This document shows positions 3,037 through 59,536 of a stretch of DNA of 64,000 bases, one piece after another (position 1 is the first letter of the stretch; every line of letters starts with the position of its first letter). The notes under the pieces are model-generated. The model had not been told where the DNA came from and did not search any database. It saw only the letters and a program-made list of their open reading frames with translations. The stretch spans positions 21,517 through 85,516 of the IMG/VR virus record IMGVR_UViG_3300033074_001483. One strand, 5' to 3'. The DNA is from a virus (lineage: Duplodnaviria; Caudoviricetes). Made by a program: the position numbers and the translations under genes.

Positions 3037-4176
3037 TTATTCTGGAATAACTGTTCCGTTGGAACTTGTGGCGAATCCTGTTCCTCCATAAACAATACTC
3101 CTTGTTCCATTCAAAAATCCTATACTCATAGTTTGATATGCATTCTTAGCAGGTGCAACTATTGCTTCATTCTTTATGGATGCACTATAGAAATTGACAT
3201 CCCACGATGCACTTTCTGCATGTTCGATTTCGACAATTATATCAGAGAGCGACCCGCTATAGAATGTGATGTCCAACGATTGCGACTCCACACTTGCACT
3301 AATTGTCATAACCCGATCAAATATCGAACCACTTAGGAATATAATATCCAGTGATCCAGTATCATTACCATACATTTCTACCGCTTGATCAAACAAAGTT
3401 CCTTGATAGAACCTTGTAATGGCAGTAGTCATGATATCTTCCTCAGTTCTATAATCCAAAGAACCATATACATATCCAACTCCAATTCCAGCTTGAATTC
3501 CTCCAACGCTTATCACTTCGTTAATGTGGGTGTCGTCATAGACTTCACAACTATTGGTGACTTCACCATCTATAATTATGTTTCCAAGTGATCTTATCTC
3601 TTGAACTTTGGAAAACAAATTAGTGCCTGCCAAGAGGTTTTGATATCCATCATCATGAATTTCTACATTATCATCAAGTGAAGTATCATACAATTGAATG
3701 GTATTGGGTACAAGACGATCTCCCCAGAAACGTTGGGGAATGTTAAATAAACGAATGAATTCGGAAATTTGTCGGTCAGTTTTACCAAGCGGGAAATCAA
3801 TGTGGTCCATCCCGAAGATTTTGGTGGGGTCTCGGTAAAGATTATAAAAACTCCTCCACGTTTGATCCCAAACGAGGCGTTTATAGGTTCCGTCTTGATT
3901 CTGAGGAGCATCGGGGAAAAAGAATCCCGACCCGCTCACTCCTTCTTGATAAATAACCTCATTTCCATCCTGTTGCTCAAGAGCAATATTACAGACACGG
4001 TTTAGAATGGGGCTGGAGCCGCCATAGTCAACATAGTCCATCGCAACTGGTACTTCTGGACTATCAGGAGGTTCGATTAAGACTACATCATCATTCTGAA
4101 CATTGTACAGCTCCCACTGCTTACTCGCAGCGAAGGGAGTTGTCAGAAAGTTCTGGTGATTGATGTGCTTGATCAT
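3037..4176 (-). CDS. Hypothetical virion protein
   Basis: 379 aa ORF in structural operon. Confidence 0.55.
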   Translation of the reverse strand: MIKHINHQNFLTTPFAASKQWELYNVQNDDVVLIEPPDSPEVPVAMDYVDYGGSSPILNRVCNIALEQQDGNEVIYQEGVSGSGFFFPDAPQNQDGTYKRLVWDQTWRSFYNLYRDPTKIFGMDHIDFPLGKTDRQISEFIRLFNIPQRFWGDRLVPNTIQLYDTSLDDNVEIHDDGYQNLLAGTNLFSKVQEIRSLGNIIIDGEVTNSCEVYDDTHINEVISVGGIQAGIGVGYVYGSLDYRTEEDIMTTAITRFYQGTLFDQAVEMYGNDTGSLDIIFLSGSIFDRVMTISASVESQSLDITFYSGSLSDIIVEIEHAESASWDVNFYSASIKNEAIVAPAKNAYQTMSIGFLNGTRSIVYGGTGFATSSNGTVIPE

Positions 4177-5338: not shown

Positions 5339-5977
5339 TTAGGATGTTGGTGCGGTAACGGTGACTTCAATTGCAATGCTTCCGCCAGATTCATTTCCAA
5401 CAATCGTCAAGTTGGTCGTGGTTGTTCTACCAAGACTGCTGTTTGGGACAAAGCGAAAAGTGTTGCCCACAACGACTTGAGCACTAGTCGTGTTGACATC
5501 ACCTGCAAATGTTGGAATTGTATTTGAAACGGCGTTTACCGCATTGGTTTGTTGAACAATGAGAGTTCCTACATTTTTGTTTCCAAGAATGGCAGTGTAC
5601 CCGGCCTGAAGGTTATATGCTGGATTCGTGGAAGGGCTGATGATGATTTCACCAGTGTAGTCTCGTGTTACCAAAATCTTATCTTGAGCAATCGTGATGA
5701 CTGGAATCGCCGTCACACCTTGGTTCAAGGTTACAAGTTTGTACTTCATCACTTGCGTCTCATCCGTCAACGGTTCAAAGATAGGAGTATTCCTCAACGC
5801 AATATCATAGAATGCGCTGCCGTTGGGGTGGTTGGGCTGATAGAGCCGGTAGTCAATCTCATCATCCGCTAAAGCGAACGACGTGATATTCAAATTGCCG
5901 TTTTTTGCAAGAAGTTCACGACCCTTCTTGGTCAGAACGGCATCAACCGTCACAGTTTGATTGTCGAGATATGCCAT
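5339..5977 (-). CDS. Jumbo-phage structural protein
   Basis: 212 aa; MAYLDN..DAVLTKKGRELLA..FALADDEIDY motif. Confidence 0.6.
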   Translation of the reverse strand: MAYLDNQTVTVDAVLTKKGRELLAKNGNLNITSFALADDEIDYRLYQPNHPNGSAFYDIALRNTPIFEPLTDETQVMKYKLVTLNQGVTAIPVITIAQDKILVTRDYTGEIIISPSTNPAYNLQAGYTAILGNKNVGTLIVQQTNAVNAVSNTIPTFAGDVNTTSAQVVVGNTFRFVPNSSLGRTTTTNLTIVGNESGGSIAIEVTVTAPTS

Positions 5978-31161: not shown

Positions 31162-31413
31162 AGTTCTTGGCATAGTCTTATGGAAGTTTAATACCTAGAC
31201 CATTTCGCCGTCATCGCTATCCCTCTTTAGGCTGGGAGACCTGTCATGGTCTTCGGGTGAACTTAACACCTTACTTATTGTCCATGATTTCCCCGTGTGT
31301 CCACACTACGGGAGTTCATTTTTCGGTATTCCTGCTATGTCAAAGAACTATAAATCTTCGAGCATAAATATAGCAGAAGTTTTCCAAGGATGCAAGAAAA
31401 AAGTTTAAGAAAA

Positions 31414-31903: not shown

Positions 31904-31977
31904 TGGTGGAGCCACGGGGAATCGCACCCCGATCTCAAGTATGCCATACTCGTGTCCTACTGTTGAACGATGGCCCC
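31904..31977 (-). tRNA. tRNA-Ala(GGC)
   Basis: Loop AT-GGC-AT; G3:U70; CCA. Confidence 0.9.
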
Positions 31978-32306: not shown

Positions 32307-32310
32307 ATAC

Positions 32311-32396
32311 TAGATGCCAGTTTTATACTCACTACGAGTCCCTTTCGGAGTTATGGTGAGCCCGGAGGCTCAATTATTGGTTGCAGTGTGCATCTA
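32311..32396 (-). ncRNA. RCAGCWA-helix family RNA (variant ACTGCAA)
   Basis: TAGATGC/GCATCTA closing helix, ACTGCAA, GAAA hairpin, A-rich linker. Confidence 0.6.
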
Positions 32397-32518
32397 TTTC
32401 TAAACACTTAATGTCCGTTTGGGTGTCACCCCACGCTCTTAGCCCGACAATTAGGCGGCTCGGTAGTCCGAAAGTTATGTTGACAACATAACACACTCTT
32501 TAGCACAAGTGAATTGGA

Positions 32519-32629
32519 AATTGTTCTTGGGTTACAGGACTTATTGGCCAATGCCTACTCGCTCTCCATCATTCTAACCGGAGATCATCCCGGCAGAGTA
32601 TCAGCATCACGAGCTTGCTGAGAACAATT
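32519..32629 (-). ncRNA. Possible RCAGCWA-helix family RNA (divergent)
   Basis: 9-bp AATTGTTCT/AGAACAATT closing helix followed by CAGCAA. Confidence 0.45.
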
Positions 32630-32633
32630 AAAT

Positions 32634-32723
32634 TGGTAGCGGAAGTAGGAGTTACACCTACCATAGTTAGCAGTGCTAACGCACGTTATGAGCGTGCTTG
32701 GCGTCTTCCGGCCTGTCCCCGCA
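32634..32723 (-). tRNA. tRNA(CAT) with long variable arm
   Basis: GCACG-CTCATAA-CGTGC; variable hairpin GTTAGC/GCTAAC; T-loop TGTAACT; 1:72 mismatch; CCA. Confidence 0.8.
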
Positions 32724-33170
32724 ATAAATCTCAAAGAACTTTTGTCTGTACGACTGGCATTGAATACCTGTCCGTATCCGATGGCATTTTGCACATCTCA
32801 CCGAACACTTTTCAATCTCCAATCTAATCTTATCCCACGAAAATCCTCTCACAAGCATTGCATACACGGCGTCTTCTTTTTGTGAAGGGTCTTCGTGATC
32901 AAAGTCTAATACTCGTATGTCTGTTTCCCCACAATCTACGCACGGATGTATCATCAAATACTCACACACTTTTTGCTGTGAGTCTGCCAGTCTGCGTTTC
33001 GTTCCTTTGTTTGAACGAGTGATATACTCCCGTCTATTCTGTTTGTAATGCTGTTTTACGTACTTCCCATGACACTCTTTACATTCAGAACAACGAAGAT
33101 TTTTCGCTTTATTTCGGAATGAGAAACACTCATCCTCTTTTGGCTTTTTACAAGTACAACATTCTCTCAT
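32676..33170 (-). CDS. HNH homing endonuclease
   Basis: PCVDCGE.DIRVLDFDH..EIEKC.VRCAKCH; 3' end runs into tRNA(CAT). Confidence 0.88.
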   Translation of the reverse strand: MRECCTCKKPKEDECFSFRNKAKNLRCSECKECHGKYVKQHYKQNRREYITRSNKGTKRRLADSQQKVCEYLMIHPCVDCGETDIRVLDFDHEDPSQKEDAVYAMLVRGFSWDKIRLEIEKCSVRCAKCHRIRTGIQCQSYRQKFFEIYCGDRPEDAKHAHNVR

Positions 33171-33295: not shown

Positions 33296-33322
33296 ATTCA
33301 AAGAACAATCTTACGTTCTGCC

Positions 33323-33581: not shown

Positions 33582-33987
33582 TTGCTCTCAATGCGCTGGA
33601 ACTGATATGTCTCAAATTTGGATTGCAATAAAATGCAACAATCTTGACATAGGGTTCCATACTTCTCAGAAATGCAACGAAATTTTGTTCGTATTCCAAA
33701 TCTGCACCGCTGCGGAGTCCACGAACAAGTGTTACATCGTAATCCAAATTCCTTTCAAGACCCCGAATGTAATCGGAAAGTAATCCCCCGAATTCATCAC
33801 TATCCACATCCATATCTTTCAAGAAATTAACAGGAAGAGGGTGAGTAGAAAGTGGTTTTTCTGGATTAACACCACGAGCAACAATCACTTTGTCAAAAAC
33901 TTTAGTTGCCTGTTTGACAACATCTAAATGCCCAACGTGAAAGGGGTTGAACGAACCGGCGTAAACTCCAACTTTTAGTTTGCTCAT
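33532..33987 (-). CDS. coaD: Phosphopantetheine adenylyltransferase
   Basis: YAGSFNPFHVGH, RGLR..ADLEYE, ISSSALR motifs. Confidence 0.9.
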   Translation of the reverse strand: MSKLKVGVYAGSFNPFHVGHLDVVKQATKVFDKVIVARGVNPEKPLSTHPLPVNFLKDMDVDSDEFGGLLSDYIRGLERNLDYDVTLVRGLRSGADLEYEQNFVAFLRSMEPYVKIVAFYCNPNLRHISSSALRAIEKISPEEYRKYVITD

Positions 33988-34583
33988 ACTTTTACGATTA
34001 GTGCTTTATAACTCGGCAAACCCTTGACTCCCATCAATGGTACAATCTTCTCGGGTTTATCTTTGAAAAATTCATCTGTGGCAACTTTTGGTCCGGGCCA
34101 CAAATCCGTTCCGTAATCATCTATCAATACCACTGCACCTTTTTCCAGATGATTGTATATCAATCTTAATGCCGACTCAGTACTTGTTTTCAAATCACCA
34201 TCAAGATGTGCGAATGAAATCTTTAACGGAATGTCGGATTCGGTCAACTGTTCAAACCATCCTTTATGGATAATTGGGATAGGAACATTATACGATCTGA
34301 ATGTCAATAGAAAAGACTCTACCGAACTTGACATTTCTCCACCATGACCTTCAGCCCTTGGCAATCCCATAAAGCTATCATAAACATGAACGGGACGATT
34401 TGTGAGAGCATTTATCATTCTGGCAGTGTAACCCTCATGACATCCAAACTCAACTACATCACCTTCCAAATGCTCGGTTTCCATGACATAATGGCAAATG
34501 TGTACTATCCGTGAAAAGTCCTGCATTCCAATACAGGACTTCAACATTGTGGCAAGTTTTTGTGATAATGTTTCATCAAACAT
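33984..34583 (-). CDS. TylF/MycF-family O-methyltransferase
   Basis: GDVVEFG..G, YDSFMGLP, FAHLDGD, IDDY motifs. Confidence 0.88.
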   Translation of the reverse strand: MFDETLSQKLATMLKSCIGMQDFSRIVHICHYVMETEHLEGDVVEFGCHEGYTARMINALTNRPVHVYDSFMGLPRAEGHGGEMSSSVESFLLTFRSYNVPIPIIHKGWFEQLTESDIPLKISFAHLDGDLKTSTESALRLIYNHLEKGAVVLIDDYGTDLWPGPKVATDEFFKDKPEKIVPLMGVKGLPSYKALIVKV

Positions 34584-34584
34584 A

Positions 34585-34971
34585 TTACCACCATAGATGT
34601 CGGAACCACTCGGCAAATAATTCTATTCCCGCTTCATAGCGTTTCCAGTTTTTGTCTTGTTCTTCGGCAGTAAGTTTTGAATACTTTTCGTTTTCATGAT
34701 TAAGAGACCAATCAAATGCAAAAATCATTTCGTCCAAGTAATCATCCCATTGTTTAGAAGTCAACTGGCCGGGGAATCCCATATTGACTTCTTTGAAGCG
34801 AATAAGTCGTGGAAGAATAAACTCCGCAATCACCGAATCCAGACCCCAAGTTTCAGCATCCGAAAACCCTTGGGTTTTCAATTGTCTAAAATGCTTTTTG
34901 TATCGTTTGTCGGTTTTCTCAAGGTATAATGGTTCTTTGAGAGACCAACGACTTGTTAGTTTTTTGCTCAT
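34585..34971 (-). CDS. Hypothetical protein
   Basis: 128 aa, translationally coupled in the operon. Confidence 0.55.
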   Translation of the reverse strand: MSKKLTSRWSLKEPLYLEKTDKRYKKHFRQLKTQGFSDAETWGLDSVIAEFILPRLIRFKEVNMGFPGQLTSKQWDDYLDEMIFAFDWSLNHENEKYSKLTAEEQDKNWKRYEAGIELFAEWFRHLWW

Positions 34972-35423
34972 AGTGATGCATATAGACGACGAAATGCTGC
35001 TTCTTCATCCCACGTTCCTCCTGTCAGAACCTCGATACATCTTCCATGTGGGAGTTCAAAATCTGGAACATGATACTTTTCTCTTCCTCGGATTTCTCCT
35101 GTGAAAACATGAATTTCAACAACATCATTTCGTGAACCTTTGAATTCTTCTCGAACATCACGATACGGATTAACTGTTGACACAATGACATCAATTCCTT
35201 GATCTGCTATATGTGCTACAAACCGTTGGAGAGCACGAGTCTGTTCAATACGATATTCTTTGGTGAAATTTTCAGGTTTGTCGTAAGGAACAGCAAAGAT
35301 TTTTCGGAGGTTATCACCATCAAGATGGAGAACTGCTGAACCTTTGGCACGCAATTCAGAAGCGAGTCGTTTTGCCAATGTAGTCTTGCCACAACCGGGT
35401 TGTCCTATAAACCAGTAAATCAT
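34968..35423 (-). CDS. Adenylylsulfate kinase (CysC)-like P-loop kinase
   Basis: WFIGQPGCGKTT, LDGDNLR, VIVSTVNPY..R motifs. Confidence 0.8.
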   Translation of the reverse strand: MIYWFIGQPGCGKTTLAKRLASELRAKGSAVLHLDGDNLRKIFAVPYDKPENFTKEYRIEQTRALQRFVAHIADQGIDVIVSTVNPYRDVREEFKGSRNDVVEIHVFTGEIRGREKYHVPDFELPHGRCIEVLTGGTWDEEAAFRRLYASL

Positions 35424-35465
35424 GCCGTTATTATAGCATGGATACTATTGAAGTCAAGTGGAAAG

Positions 35466-35539
35466 TGGTGGAGCTAAAGGGAATTGAACCCTTATCTTCG
35501 CAGTGCGAGTGCGATGTCCTGCCGTTGAACGACAGCCCC
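35466..35539 (-). tRNA. tRNA-Ala(CGC)
   Basis: TCGCA-CTCGCAC-TGCGA; G3:U70; CCA. Confidence 0.92.
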
Positions 35540-35544
35540 ATTCG

Positions 35545-36225
35545 GGCAACTTGTCAGTCACCCACGATGTTACTCGTTATCCAAACCTATTTCTACGAGC
35601 TGCACGTAGATGCCAGTCTTGACCCTACCTCGGAACCTCGGTCAATCCTATAGCACGTTACTACAACAAAAGCCGCCGTTCCGCAGCGACGTGTCAGTTT
35701 AGAAATTCGGTGCTCATGGTCTGCTTATAGTACTCTGGAGGTCTCGCAGAAGCCCTGACCCAGACACGAGCAAAATATCGTTTGCAGATCGTATCGTCGA
35801 ACGATACGCTGTGCAAACGGAAAAATGGTGAGATGGGCAGTGCAAACTGCTTTCTACAGGGGGGACGGCACCACGTCTGTCCCTTATGGAGTACTCCTTT
35901 CGGGACGCCCATCTCATTCTGTTTTTGTCGCAGCCGTAGCCGCAATTCTGTTCTATCTCTACATTTTTCTCAAGGTCAACCATACGGTTGCCAAGTCCCT
36001 CACGGGATGCCTCAACCCGGGCTTTACAATGGGAAGCACTACCCTTTGCCCTGTTTGAGTTGCTGTTACTTTGTGGTGTTAACGAATGGTTTGCCCACGG
36101 TCAAGAGGGCGTCGGTAAAGACCCATTCTCCCAAACAGCTGCTTTACAGTTGCGAACTTCCTCTGGTTGCTCCTGTTCAGGCGGAACCAGCGTAGAGTCG
36201 CTTACGACAAAATTCTCAAAGAACT
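35545..36225 (-). ncRNA. Large structured ncRNA candidate (GOLLD/ROOL size class)
   Basis: ~680 nt without a credible ORF, many long hairpins, own promoter and boxA-like motif, adjacent to a tRNA. Confidence 0.6.
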
Positions 36226-36231
36226 GGTGGT

Positions 36232-36259
36232 ACGATACCACACTTCGTCAAAATGTCAA
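36232..36259 (-). promoter_or_regulatory. Sigma70-like promoter for the large RNA
   Basis: TTGACA-16-TATCGT with extended -10 TG; GTTCTTTGA at 36216-36224. Confidence 0.6.
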
Positions 36260-36264
36260 CCTTT

Positions 36265-36576
36265 TTATGGGATGACTGCACCTTGCCCCGGTGCTGGAGG
36301 GGGAGTAACCACTGGTGGAGTTACAACTGGAGGCGTAACCACTGGTGGTTGAGTATTGACTCCTGTTTTATTCTCCAAAAATCGTCTTGCTGTATAAGTT
36401 CCACAGAGGACCAGAGTTACATAAACATATGGTTCTGGTACATCGGCAAGTTTGTCCGTTTTGAAAGTGACGTATCCGATAAGTGTCATAAAGAACACCA
36501 TCCATATGAGAAACATCAGTCCTGTGCGGGACATTCTTCCTCGGTGGTCCAAGAGTAGTTCGATTGGTTTTGCCAT
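36265..36576 (-). CDS. Small membrane protein (holin-like topology) with PPVVT repeats
   Basis: Two TM helices; (PPVVT)3 tail. Confidence 0.55.
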   Translation of the reverse strand: MAKPIELLLDHRGRMSRTGLMFLIWMVFFMTLIGYVTFKTDKLADVPEPYVYVTLVLCGTYTARRFLENKTGVNTQPPVVTPPVVTPPVVTPPPAPGQGAVIP

Positions 36577-38343: not shown

Positions 38344-38417
38344 TGGTGGGCCATGATGGTTACGCTCCATCGTCTCATCAGTGTCAGTGATGAATTCTAC
38401 TATTAAACTAACAGCCC
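38344..38417 (-). tRNA. tRNA-Val(GAC)
   Basis: CATCA-CTGACAC-TGATG; T-loop AGCGTAA; CCA. Confidence 0.9.
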
Positions 38418-53079: not shown

Positions 53080-53154
53080 TGGTGCTGCACCCGAGAGTCG
53101 CACTCGGAATTCAACCTTCGCAGGGTCGTGTGATATCTATTTCACCAGCGCAGC
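53080..53154 (-). tRNA. tRNA-Arg(GCG)
   Basis: CGACC-CTGCGAA-GGTTG; CCA. Confidence 0.88.
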
Positions 53155-54031: not shown

Positions 54032-54106
54032 TGGCCCTCCATACGAGACTCGCACTCGTTACTTGATCGTGACAGGATCATATGATACCTCATTCAACAA
54101 TGGAGG
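54032..54106 (-). tRNA. tRNA-Asp(GTC), copy 2
   Basis: TGATC-CTGTCAC-GATCA; G73; CCA. Confidence 0.88.
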
Positions 54107-56152: not shown

Positions 56153-56174
56153 ATTCAAAGAACAATCTACAAAT

Positions 56175-56921: not shown

Positions 56922-56995
56922 TGGAGCCCAAGGACGGTTACGCTCCGTCGTCTCAGCTTTACCAAAGCCGTGTACTGCTATTGTACTACATGGGC
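56922..56995 (-). tRNA. tRNA-Thr(GGT)
   Basis: CGGCT-TTGGTAA-AGCTG; CCA. Confidence 0.88.
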
Positions 56996-57320: not shown

Positions 57321-57339
57321 ATCAAAGAACAATCAAAAT

Positions 57340-58399: not shown

Positions 58400-59536
58400 T
58401 TATTCCTTTTTGAATTCTTTCTCAGGGGCGTTGTACGCTTCCTTCAAATACTGTGTTGGGTCTTGAAGGTAATGAATACTTTTCTCATATCCGTCAGATG
58501 GTTTGTAATATCCATGAGGATACATTTCAATGTGGAGCATACTTGGCTTCCAACCCTGAAGTTCTGGATGCTGTGGTCTATCTGGCGGAATTACCCGCAG
58601 TACTTCACCAATGCGAGTATCGCCCCGACGAACTTTGTCACCAACACGTACGCACGGCTTGATTTCGCCATAGCACACCACACCCGTTGCTCCTTCAACA
58701 AGAACACAGTCGGTATCCAACCACCAAGGACTGTTATCTTTTGGACCCGTGAATGGTTCAACCGCTACAACTATACCATTTTCAACTGGCACAACGGGTG
58801 TACCAACATCACAATACAAATCCACGCCTGTATGCGTAGAGTTCTTTCGCTTGGCATTGAATGCTCCCGGGTGAGTGCAAACGGGAATGCCTTCACAAAG
58901 TTGTTTCTCCCACGGATATTGGCCGGGGATGGGGAAAGACCATCGCAACGCCTCTTGGGTCGCTTCTACAATATCCTCAATGTTTGCCATAGCACCCATT
59001 CCATAGGTATTACAGGCAAGCATCTTTGCTTGGGGAGGAACAATTTTGTATCCCCAACTACGAAGCGTCTTGATATGCTGCTCTGTAATGGGATGATTCC
59101 ACATGTGAGTATTCATTGCGGGTGCAATGATAACAGGACGATTTTGATCCCACGCCCGAGCAACAGACGTAAGAAGATTATCGCACAATCCATTTGCCAG
59201 CTTCGCAAGTGTATTGGCAGAACATGGAGCAATCACCAAAACACTATACTTATCCCGAAGCTCAATATGGAGAACGGGGTCATCTTTTCTCCATTTGGAT
59301 TCCATGTGGTCATCATGGTTGAAAAACTTGCCTTTGCTCGGCGTATCCGAATGAAACCAGTGCCACTCGTGCCATTCACGCAAGACTTTGATTCCATTGA
59401 ACTCGTCTGAGACAAAATGCTCCGCTCTCGGTGTGAGAACAGTCGTTACATCTCCAACTTTCTGAAGCTCATTGACCAGTTTCACGTACAAAACTGATGC
59501 AACGCTTCCAGTTAGTCCAAGCAATACTTTTCTCAT
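58400..59536 (-). CDS. coaC: Phosphopantothenoylcysteine decarboxylase fused to an M23 peptidase-like domain
   Basis: GLTGSVA, HIEL, APCSANTLAKLANGLCDNL, PAMNTHMW, LAC..G.GAM; C-terminal HTGVDL..LHIE. Confidence 0.88.
   Translation of the reverse strand: MRKVLLGLTGSVASVLYVKLVNELQKVGDVTTVLTPRAEHFVSDEFNGIKVLREWHEWHWFHSDTPSKGKFFNHDDHMESKWRKDDPVLHIELRDKYSVLVIAPCSANTLAKLANGLCDNLLTSVARAWDQNRPVIIAPAMNTHMWNHPITEQHIKTLRSWGYKIVPPQAKMLACNTYGMGAMANIEDIVEATQEALRWSFPIPGQYPWEKQLCEGIPVCTHPGAFNAKRKNSTHTGVDLYCDVGTPVVPVENGIVVAVEPFTGPKDNSPWWLDTDCVLVEGATGVVCYGEIKPCVRVGDKVRRGDTRIGEVLRVIPPDRPQHPELQGWKPSMLHIEMYPHGYYKPSDGYEKSIHYLQDPTQYLKEAYNAPEKEFKKE

Follow-up and report, generated by a model that had tools for sequence, protein, structure and literature searches.

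A probable phage RNase P RNA with a hairpin in place of the specificity domain, encoded in a viral tRNA gene array

Introduction

What is encoded by a stretch of phage DNA that lies among tRNA genes and holds no credible open reading frame (ORF)? The question is raised by positions 35545-36225 of the window, the 64,000-nucleotide (nt) DNA analysed here, which comes from a virus record of 85.5 kb in IMG/VR (IMGVR_UViG_3300033074_001483; CheckV completeness 24%). The stretch is flanked by a small ORF (36621-36265) and a gene for tRNA-Ala(CGC) (35539-35466), and all of its features are read on the minus strand. A sequence-only reading had taken it for a single, highly structured non-coding RNA of about 680 nt, belonging to the GOLLD/ROOL class of giant RNAs or to a new class. 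The analysis presented here points to a different answer. Positions 36212-35923 probably encode a phage ribonuclease P (RNase P) RNA, a homologue of the bacterial type-A RNA with a complete catalytic (C) domain, in which the specificity (S) domain is swapped for a short irregular hairpin. This reading is given a probability of about 80%. RNase P RNA, which trims new tRNAs, is regarded as a universal cellular ribozyme.

Results

A conserved structured RNA among phage tRNA genes

The GC content of the stretch is ~50%, compared with ~40% for the flanking genes. Comparison with shuffled sequence gave a folding z-score of -4.5 for the minus strand and -1.95 for the plus strand. Relatives were searched for with the neighbouring APS-kinase-like gene as bait, which yielded 16 viral loci. 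An RNA homologue was found by nhmmer in seven of the 16, in six of the seven upstream of tRNA-Ala(CGC). Pattern scans and a hidden Markov model (HMM) gave the first ~22 distinct members, and a strict 24-base pattern matched 36 IMG/VR contigs and 93 metagenome contigs; the family totals 148 loci with 74 distinct cores. Conservation in the relatives is confined to the part of the window from 36225 to ~35775. The alignments consist of invariant blocks separated by inserts of widely differing lengths that are not multiples of three, indicating a structured RNA rather than a protein. A protein-coding reading was rejected on the basis of these insert lengths, of stop codons in all six frames of the stretch and of compensatory changes in the base pairs. 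The expectation of a structured non-coding RNA among the phage tRNA genes is thus borne out by the stop codons, the folding of the minus strand, the homologues and their covariation.

A model of the 3' half of the phage RNA (R1) found a single copy per genome in three near-complete phage genomes (148-365 kb). The cultured Stenotrophomonas phage vB_SmaS-DLP_6 (L409, KU682439.2) carries a copy at about 105,776-106,020 (R1 44 bits, E 6e-9). It is unannotated in GenBank and lies between a hypothetical coding sequence and tRNA-Arg(CCG), which begins 5 nt downstream. A blastn search of the region against 50,697 phage records gave no match at first, and later just a 40-nt match in the conserved region CR-V of DLP_6. 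R1 found no copy among the 151 cyanobacterial genomes searched, nor in Microcystis phage Mel-JY01 or the 484-kb uncultured phage LR756508. A scan of genome contigs with an 18-nt pattern gave at least 120 matches, all listed ones being chance matches by nhmmer.

The core has the architecture of a type-A catalytic domain

The structure of the core was written out by hand, with the P4 and the type-A P6 pseudoknots included, and was then counted on 23 homologues. It comprises 58 pairs in 14 helices, and 92.8% of the cells pair over the 23 sequences, whereas sliding the partners by 1-3 columns leaves 33-48%. Compensatory changes occur in 43 of the 58 pairs, and none of 500 shuffles reached any of the observed measures. 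Covariation among homologues, which the sequence-only reading had named as a check, is therefore extensive.

The core holds the full type-A catalytic domain, namely P1-P6, P15-P17, the conserved regions CR-I, CR-IV and CR-V, the bulged U of P4 and the GGU of L15 (Table 1). P1, P2 and P3 (helices 1-4) enclose the molecule in the canonical order. P2 is 97.6-100% paired, with covarying versions such as CUCUAC/GUAGAG, UCUUAC/GUAAGA and CUUUAC/GUAAAG. P4 (helix 5), with its bulged U, is formed by CR-I (GAGGAAAGUCC-like) and CR-V (ACAGAAnnCGGCUUA-like) and is 95.8% paired, with compensatory changes in four of its eight pairs. P5 pairs in all 74 distinct members, in nine different versions. The P6 pseudoknot (helix 7), formed by J5/7 with the P17 loop, is 93.6% paired and shows compensatory change in four of five pairs. 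P15 (helix 11) covaries, and every pair of P16 and P17 (helices 12 and 13) has compensatory changes. Between P16 and P15, the GG of L15 is invariant and the next U nearly so. The CAA of J5/15, directly past the 3' strand of P5, is likewise invariant, and an AGCAAG..AAAU-like CR-IV holds the equivalent of E. coli A248.

Two hairpins, both listed in the sequence-only reading, occupy the P18 position. Helix 14, in this position, has compensatory changes in six of six pairs. In many relatives the loop of the second hairpin is of the GNRA type (GCAA or GAAA), whereas it is GUAU in the window, and both hairpins are missing from the mini variants L297, L308 and L309. In one subclade (L002 ~3725-3765, L003 ~4035-4075, L038 and L291), an extra hairpin of ~30 nt, e.g. 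AACAUGGGCUAUACGCUCAUGGGUGCGAA, lies between the 3' strands of P4 and P1, a segment that is normally uninterrupted in cellular RNase P RNAs.

Links to known RNase P RNAs

A descriptor derived from CR-I, P4 and CR-V of E. coli, applied to 4.7 Mb of sequence, matched the phage family, four of six genuine rnpB genes and nothing else. The Rfam model RF00373 matches relatives of the window RNA over the full model, with 47.1 bits and E 2.7e-10 for L297, E 6e-7 for L294, E 3e-6 for L292 and E 2e-3 for L309. In its alignment of L297, P1, P2, P3, CR-I, P5, J5/15, P15, P16, J18/2 and CR-V are as placed by eye. The window RNA is connected to L297 by an end-to-end nhmmer match (E 3.6e-17), and the family HMM matches it with E 7.6e-34. 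Searched with nhmmer, the phage HMM gave no match to E. coli rnpB. On six rnpB loci, R1 pointed to the right place in E. coli and in a cyanobacterial locus, without significance.

A short irregular hairpin replaces the specificity domain

Normal RNase P RNAs carry a specificity domain of ~150 nt between the strands of P5. In the phage RNA a variable hairpin stands in this place. Its flanks are conserved (GCUGUUUGGGAG, 36139-36128, and CGUUAACACCACAAAGUA, 36084-36067) and form a 2-bp mini-P7 and a UGG:CCA helix, the hairpin being bordered by the conserved strands UUGGGAG and CGUUAAUACCAC. Pairing in helices 8-10 reaches 95%, helices 8 and 10 show compensatory changes, and the mini-P7 covaries. 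The insert measures 45 nt in the window and 13-168 nt over the 74 distinct members; the smallest members are ~200 nt in all (L297: 9558-9757). The RF00373 alignment of L297 deletes the S-domain columns. Members with long inserts score no better in Rfam, indicating that the inserts are not cryptic S domains. One phage contig with a mini RNase P RNA (L106) also encodes a full transfer-messenger RNA at 5523-5903, ~1.2 kb downstream (RF00023, 123.6 bits).

Several results weigh against the assignment as RNase P RNA. The window copy has no match at E <= 10 with RF00010, RF00011, RF00373 or RF02357 (clan CL00002). The comparison with RNase P models, also suggested in the sequence-only reading, thus fails on the window copy and succeeds on its relatives, whose RF00373 scores of 25-47 bits are under the gathering threshold of 84. 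R1 places the right portion of E. coli rnpB at the top and aligns it end-to-end, but with 2.2 bits and E 1.4, which is not significant, and it does not stand out on the five other rnpB loci. CR-I is one A short of the bacterial consensus, and the family lacks P7-P12 with CR-II/CR-III as well as the T-loop binding site. The only protein matches bearing on the host, one with a Microcystis phage and one with an uncultured huge phage, have 22% identity, too little to name a host. A viral precedent is inactive, as the RNase P-like RNA of camelpox virus showed no pre-tRNA processing in vitro (PMC3001073); it is likewise virus-encoded, but it is a single case from a eukaryotic virus and lies outside any tRNA array. 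Because the Rfam scores are below threshold and the matches of the relatives are significant, the RNA is filed as a divergent homologue and not as a member by the Rfam criterion.

The reduced structure also bears on whether the RNA would be catalytic. Five phage records, including one that is 95% complete, gave no match to PF00825 (RnpA). With no RnpA gene found, the RNA would work with the host protein or alone. A descendant of RNase P RNA could instead be a non-catalytic decoy for host RnpA or for pre-tRNAs, one that throttles host tRNA maturation or regulates use of the phage tRNA array; the missing S domain, CR-II/III and T-loop binding site agree with such a role, as does an RNA that has to work alone or take the RnpA of the host. 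However, the strongest conservation extends beyond the helices to residues of catalysis and docking (CR-I, the bulged U of P4, the CAA of J5/15, the GGU of L15 and the ACAGAA of CR-V). Isolated C domains are active (PMC11143913), and the gene lies directly upstream of its presumed substrates. The pattern of conservation favours catalysis, and a decoy is considered unlikely.

A CCA-ended module and a non-conserved 3' portion

Downstream of the core, the domain with a 10-bp stem and a CCA end, the long hairpin and the possible terminator described in the sequence-only reading are all present (Table 1). The module begins 6 nt past P1 and consists of a closing stem (UGAGAUGGGC/GCCCAUCUCA; TGAGATGGGC/GCCCATCTCA) followed by the 3'-CCA, with hairpin A (CCC-GAAA-GGAG...CUCC-AUAA-GGG), hairpin B and a variable arm in its interior. 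RNAalifold on seven module homologues gave 18 pairs, nine of them with compensatory change, and the long stem covaries. By its HMM, the module is present in 14 of 73 distinct members, eight of which end in CACCA followed by AUUU, like the tRNAs of the phage. It is not called a tRNA by ARAGORN or by the Rfam tRNA model, and its likeness to tRNA is limited to the closed stem, the 3'-(A)CCA and the AUUU trailer. The idea that the module is an S domain relocated to the 3' end was dropped, since most members are without it; the resemblance lies just in loops of the GAAA/GUAA type.

A different element follows the RNase P RNA of L004 directly (~3450-3545). It is a degenerate, tRNA-Ala(CGC)-like cloverleaf with a 7-bp acceptor stem and ACCA, an anticodon loop UUCGCAA and an odd T-loop GGCGGUA, for which ARAGORN makes no call. 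This cloverleaf may be a transitional form that links true tRNAs with the CCA module.

In L010 and L011, a hairpin equivalent to the long hairpin of the window and of different sequence follows the module. The 3' 230 nt (35775-35545), terminator included, have a match in none of the retrieved relatives.

These distributions bear on the size of the RNA. One promoter and one terminator enclose ~560 nt, and the whole stretch folds better than shuffled sequence, as would be expected if the entire 555-680 nt made up a single giant ornate RNA, either of the GOLLD/ROOL class or of a new one. However, searches with 4227 Rfam families over 35400-36400 and 35900-36230 gave no GOLLD or ROOL match at E <= 10, and besides tRNA no family scores meaningfully. 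In 59 of 73 members the core lacks the module, and a tRNA often comes 3-10 nt after it, and the last 230 nt are conserved in no relative. The parts are thus distributed independently among the relatives, which contradicts a single giant RNA and makes it highly improbable. The supposed ~680-nt RNA is instead a composite of the ~290-nt core, a module of a subclade, a hairpin and a non-conserved spacer.

Predicted promoter and conserved leader

The promoter proposed in the sequence-only reading was recovered. It agrees with the consensus of sigma-70-type promoters at 10 of 12 positions and has a TG upstream of the -10 element, and TTGACA-type promoters lie in the same place in relatives L007, L010, L011, L303 and L308. 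Transcription is predicted to start near 36225. The boxA-like leader, which we take to resemble the E. coli rrn boxA sequence, is at or just past the predicted start and 4 nt before P1, and the same decamer precedes P1 in at least 10 relatives. From promoter to terminator-like hairpin, the predicted primary transcript measures ~560 nt.

The decamer (A/T)GTTCTTTGA recurs on the minus strand of the window at 31340-31349, 32731-32740, 33298-33307, 36216-36225, 56155-56164 and 57322-57331, with tRNA genes or the RNase P RNA beginning 1-8 nt after it. Spacers between tRNA genes contain some of the copies, just past the CCA of the preceding tRNA, and two are ~15 nt past a common motif, TGCTATATTTAT, which resembles a phage promoter. 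When one mismatch is tolerated, the decamer matches 20 times, compared with a chance expectation of 8.4. Candidate roles for the decamer are boxA-like antitermination, cleavage by RNase E and service as an RNase P leader element.

The tRNA array and a proposed mode of action

ARAGORN called 40 tRNA genes in the window, every one of them on the minus strand, and the Rfam tRNA model contributed a few further matches. Among 73 distinct members, 21 have a tRNA that starts 3-10 nt past P1, usually tRNA-Ala(GGC) or tRNA-Ala(CGC), and relatives mostly have one of these two after the RNase P RNA.

This arrangement suggests how the RNA might be made and used. The gene, within an array of more than 40 tRNA genes, would be transcribed from its own sigma-70 promoter. 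RNase P would define the 3' end of the RNA by cutting at the start of the element 3-10 nt downstream, which is a genuine tRNA in many relatives and the CCA-ended tRNA-like module in the window phage. The RNA would then trim the 5' leaders off phage pre-tRNAs, most likely with host RnpA. Having no S domain for the tRNA elbow, it would lean for docking on the pairing of the L15 GGU with 3'-RCCA. The 3'-CCA is encoded by 39 of the 40 ARAGORN tRNA genes, which fits an enzyme that has kept the CCA-binding GGU and lost the elbow-reading domain.

Some tRNAs of the array have unusual elbows. Position 55 of the T-loop is G in five of the 40 (tRNA-Ala(GGC) at 31904-31977, 38344-38417, 53080-53154, 54032-54106 and 56922-56995), with T-loops TGCGxxx or AGCGTAA. 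Four of the five have AG instead of GG in the D-loop, while tRNA-Asp (54032-54106) retains GG. U55 is kept in the other 35 tRNAs, 33 of which have TTC. The differences in the D-loop and at position 55 suggest that the two partners of the 18/55 elbow pair changed together.

A more specific proposal is a private maturation route for phage tRNAs, in which the RNA would ignore the elbow, dock through L15 GGU and the encoded CCA, and handle the phage tRNAs, those with A18/G55 elbows among them, without the host ribozyme. The CCA module would then be a built-in substrate mimic for a cut in the RNA's own precursor that releases the mature 3' end. This extension is tentative and, on present evidence, rather doubtful. 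The main task of an active RNase P-type ribozyme might also lie elsewhere, in non-tRNA phage RNAs (the CCA module, other RNAs of the array or messenger RNAs) or only in unusual tRNAs. Loss of the domain that measures the elbow should relax the demands on substrate shape; an A18/G55 elbow occurs in five of the 40 tRNAs, 14 of 73 members have the non-tRNA module after the gene, and the array has further structured stretches. However, the elbow is ordinary in 35 of the 40 tRNAs, what comes after the RNA in most members is an ordinary tRNA or no recognisable element and not the module, and nothing connects the RNA to any messenger RNA. Such a division of labour is regarded as quite improbable, and trimming of the phage pre-tRNAs is the preferred function of the candidate RNase P RNA.

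Neighbouring genes and other features of the window

A search for relatives of the upstream 118-aa membrane-like ORF gave none. Downstream of tRNA-Ala(CGC), a TTGACT-16-TATAAT promoter (35457-35430, minus strand) precedes the APS-kinase-like gene and further small ORFs (stretch 33984-35457). The APS-kinase-like P-loop protein is encoded at 34968-35423 on the minus strand (PF01583, E 3e-16), and in at least seven viral contigs a relative of the kinase lies shortly after tRNA-Ala(CGC) and the RNase P RNA gene. A 378-aa ORF at 58400-59536 (minus strand) joins a Flavoprotein domain (PF02441, E 9e-34) to a weak Peptidase_M23 match of 24.3 bits, under the Pfam cut-off of 28.7 bits; this pairing is unusual in a phage gene. 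Within the tRNA array, ~330 nt at 32307-32640 (minus strand), upstream of tRNA-Ala(UGC), are free of ORFs and share just 8-11-nt words with 35540-35921. The first ~100-120 nt of this segment are conserved in L035 (E 5e-10) and L005 (E 2e-6).

Table 1. Features of the probable RNase P RNA locus, given in window coordinates. All are on the minus strand; paired strands are separated by a slash.
Feature	Position	Phage sequence or remark	E. coli rnpB	Basis
Predicted promoter, sigma-70 type	36232-36259	TTGACA 36259-36254, 16-nt spacer, TGgTATCGT, -10 at 36237-36232		consensus scan
Conserved leader, boxA-like	36216-36225	AGUUCUUUGA (AGTTCTTTGA)		exact motif
RNase P RNA homologue	35923-36212	~290 nt		covariation, descriptor test, nhmmer link to L297
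P1	36212-36205 / 35930-35923
P2	36197-36192 / 35962-35957
P3	36190-36163
CR-I and P4 5' strand	36162-36150	bulged U at 36156
CR-I, compared		GAGGAAGUUCG	GAGGAAAGUCCG
P5	36149-36146 / 36066-36063
P6 pseudoknot	36143-36140 / 36038-36035
Variable hairpin in place of S domain	36084-36128			covariation of helices 8-10
J5/15	36062-36060	CAA
P5 3' strand and J5/15, compared		GCAGCAAUCCUAAA	GGAGCAAGGCCAAAUA	aligned in R1 and Rfam model alignments
P15	36059-36057 / 36013-36011
P16	36051-36048 / 36022-36019
P17	36044-36042 / 36033-36031
L15	36018-36014	GGGUU
L15, compared		AGGUUGG	GGGUAGG
First hairpin in P18 position	36007-35996	TCCC-GTGA-GGGA
Second hairpin in P18 position	35990-35977	CAACC-GTAT-GGTTG, then J18/2-like GAGAAAAAUG
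J18/2, compared		GAGAUAAAUG	AGAUGAAUG
P4 3' strand	35945-35938	within CR-V 35950-35936
CR-V, compared		ACAGAAcgGCGGCUA (ACAGAAnnGCGGCUA)	ACAGAACCCGGCUUA
tRNA-like module	35826-35916	91 nt, ends ACCA		RNAalifold, module HMM
Long hairpin	35779-35819	CGUUUGCA...UGCAAACG (CGTTTGCA...TGCAAACG), inner GUAUCGU-UCG-ACGAUAC, then AUAUUUUG		sequence and minimum-free-energy fold
Intrinsic-terminator-like hairpin	35663-35690	GUCGCUGCGGAACGGCGGC, then T-tract UUUUGUUGUA		sequence scan
tRNA-Ala(CGC)	35466-35539	encoded CCA; syntenic partner of the RNase P RNA gene		ARAGORN; Rfam 59.9 bits

Discussion

The phage RNA and bacterial type-A RNase P RNA (E. coli M1 RNA/rnpB, RF00010) have in common the order and topology of P1-P6 and P15-P17 with hairpins in the P18 position, the P4 pseudoknot with its bulged U, the CR-I, CR-IV and CR-V blocks and an L15 GGU that faces CCA-encoding tRNAs. 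In contrast to the bacterial RNA, the phage RNA has one irregular hairpin for the S domain (P7-P14, CR-II/III) and one A fewer in CR-I, and it is shorter, with 290 nt in the window phage and ~200 nt in the smallest relatives compared with 377 nt in E. coli. Its gene lies inside phage tRNA arrays, and the Rfam model misses the window copy.

Reduced RNase P RNAs are known from two other sources. According to PMC7191817, citing Lai et al. 2010, archaeal type-T RNase P RNA is active though nearly all of its S domain is lost. The type-T RNAs (Pyrobaculum and relatives, RF02357) are likewise natural, with the S domain nearly gone and a size near that of the smallest phage members. However, they are archaeal and cellular and are the sole RNase P RNA of the organism, whereas the phage RNA has no RF02357 match and has the bacterial type-A features P6, P16/P17 and L15 GGU, indicating that the two reductions are convergent rather than of shared ancestry. 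Bacterial RNase P RNAs engineered to consist of the C domain only cleave pre-tRNA with and without protein, with weaker substrate binding (PMC11143913). They provide a working model for the phage RNA but are laboratory constructs, whereas the phage family is natural, conserved and diversified and has conserved strands of its own in place of the S domain.

Another type of phage ribozyme is found in the same surroundings. Theta ribozymes, which are hepatitis delta virus-like, are phage-encoded, lie beside tRNA genes and are implicated in tRNA processing (PMC10879173). They are small, self-cleaving and of unrelated fold, each acting on its own transcript, whereas RNase P serves many substrates and trims 5' ends. 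No report of a phage-encoded RNase P RNA was found in the full-text literature searched; a 2024 RNase P review makes no mention of one, and the term RNase P was not found in a search of a 2026 jumbo-phage review.

The Rfam thresholds fail on this family and the DLP_6 copy is unannotated, indicating that standard annotation misses such genes and that the RNA gene content of phages is underestimated. The cultured carrier DLP_6 makes the question of activity directly testable. If the RNA is active, phages with large tRNA arrays would carry both the substrates of translation and the ribozyme that matures them. An active family would also mean natural, C-domain-only RNase P RNAs of the bacterial type many times over, down to ~200 nt, and such a natural series would be comparative material on the purpose of the specificity domain.

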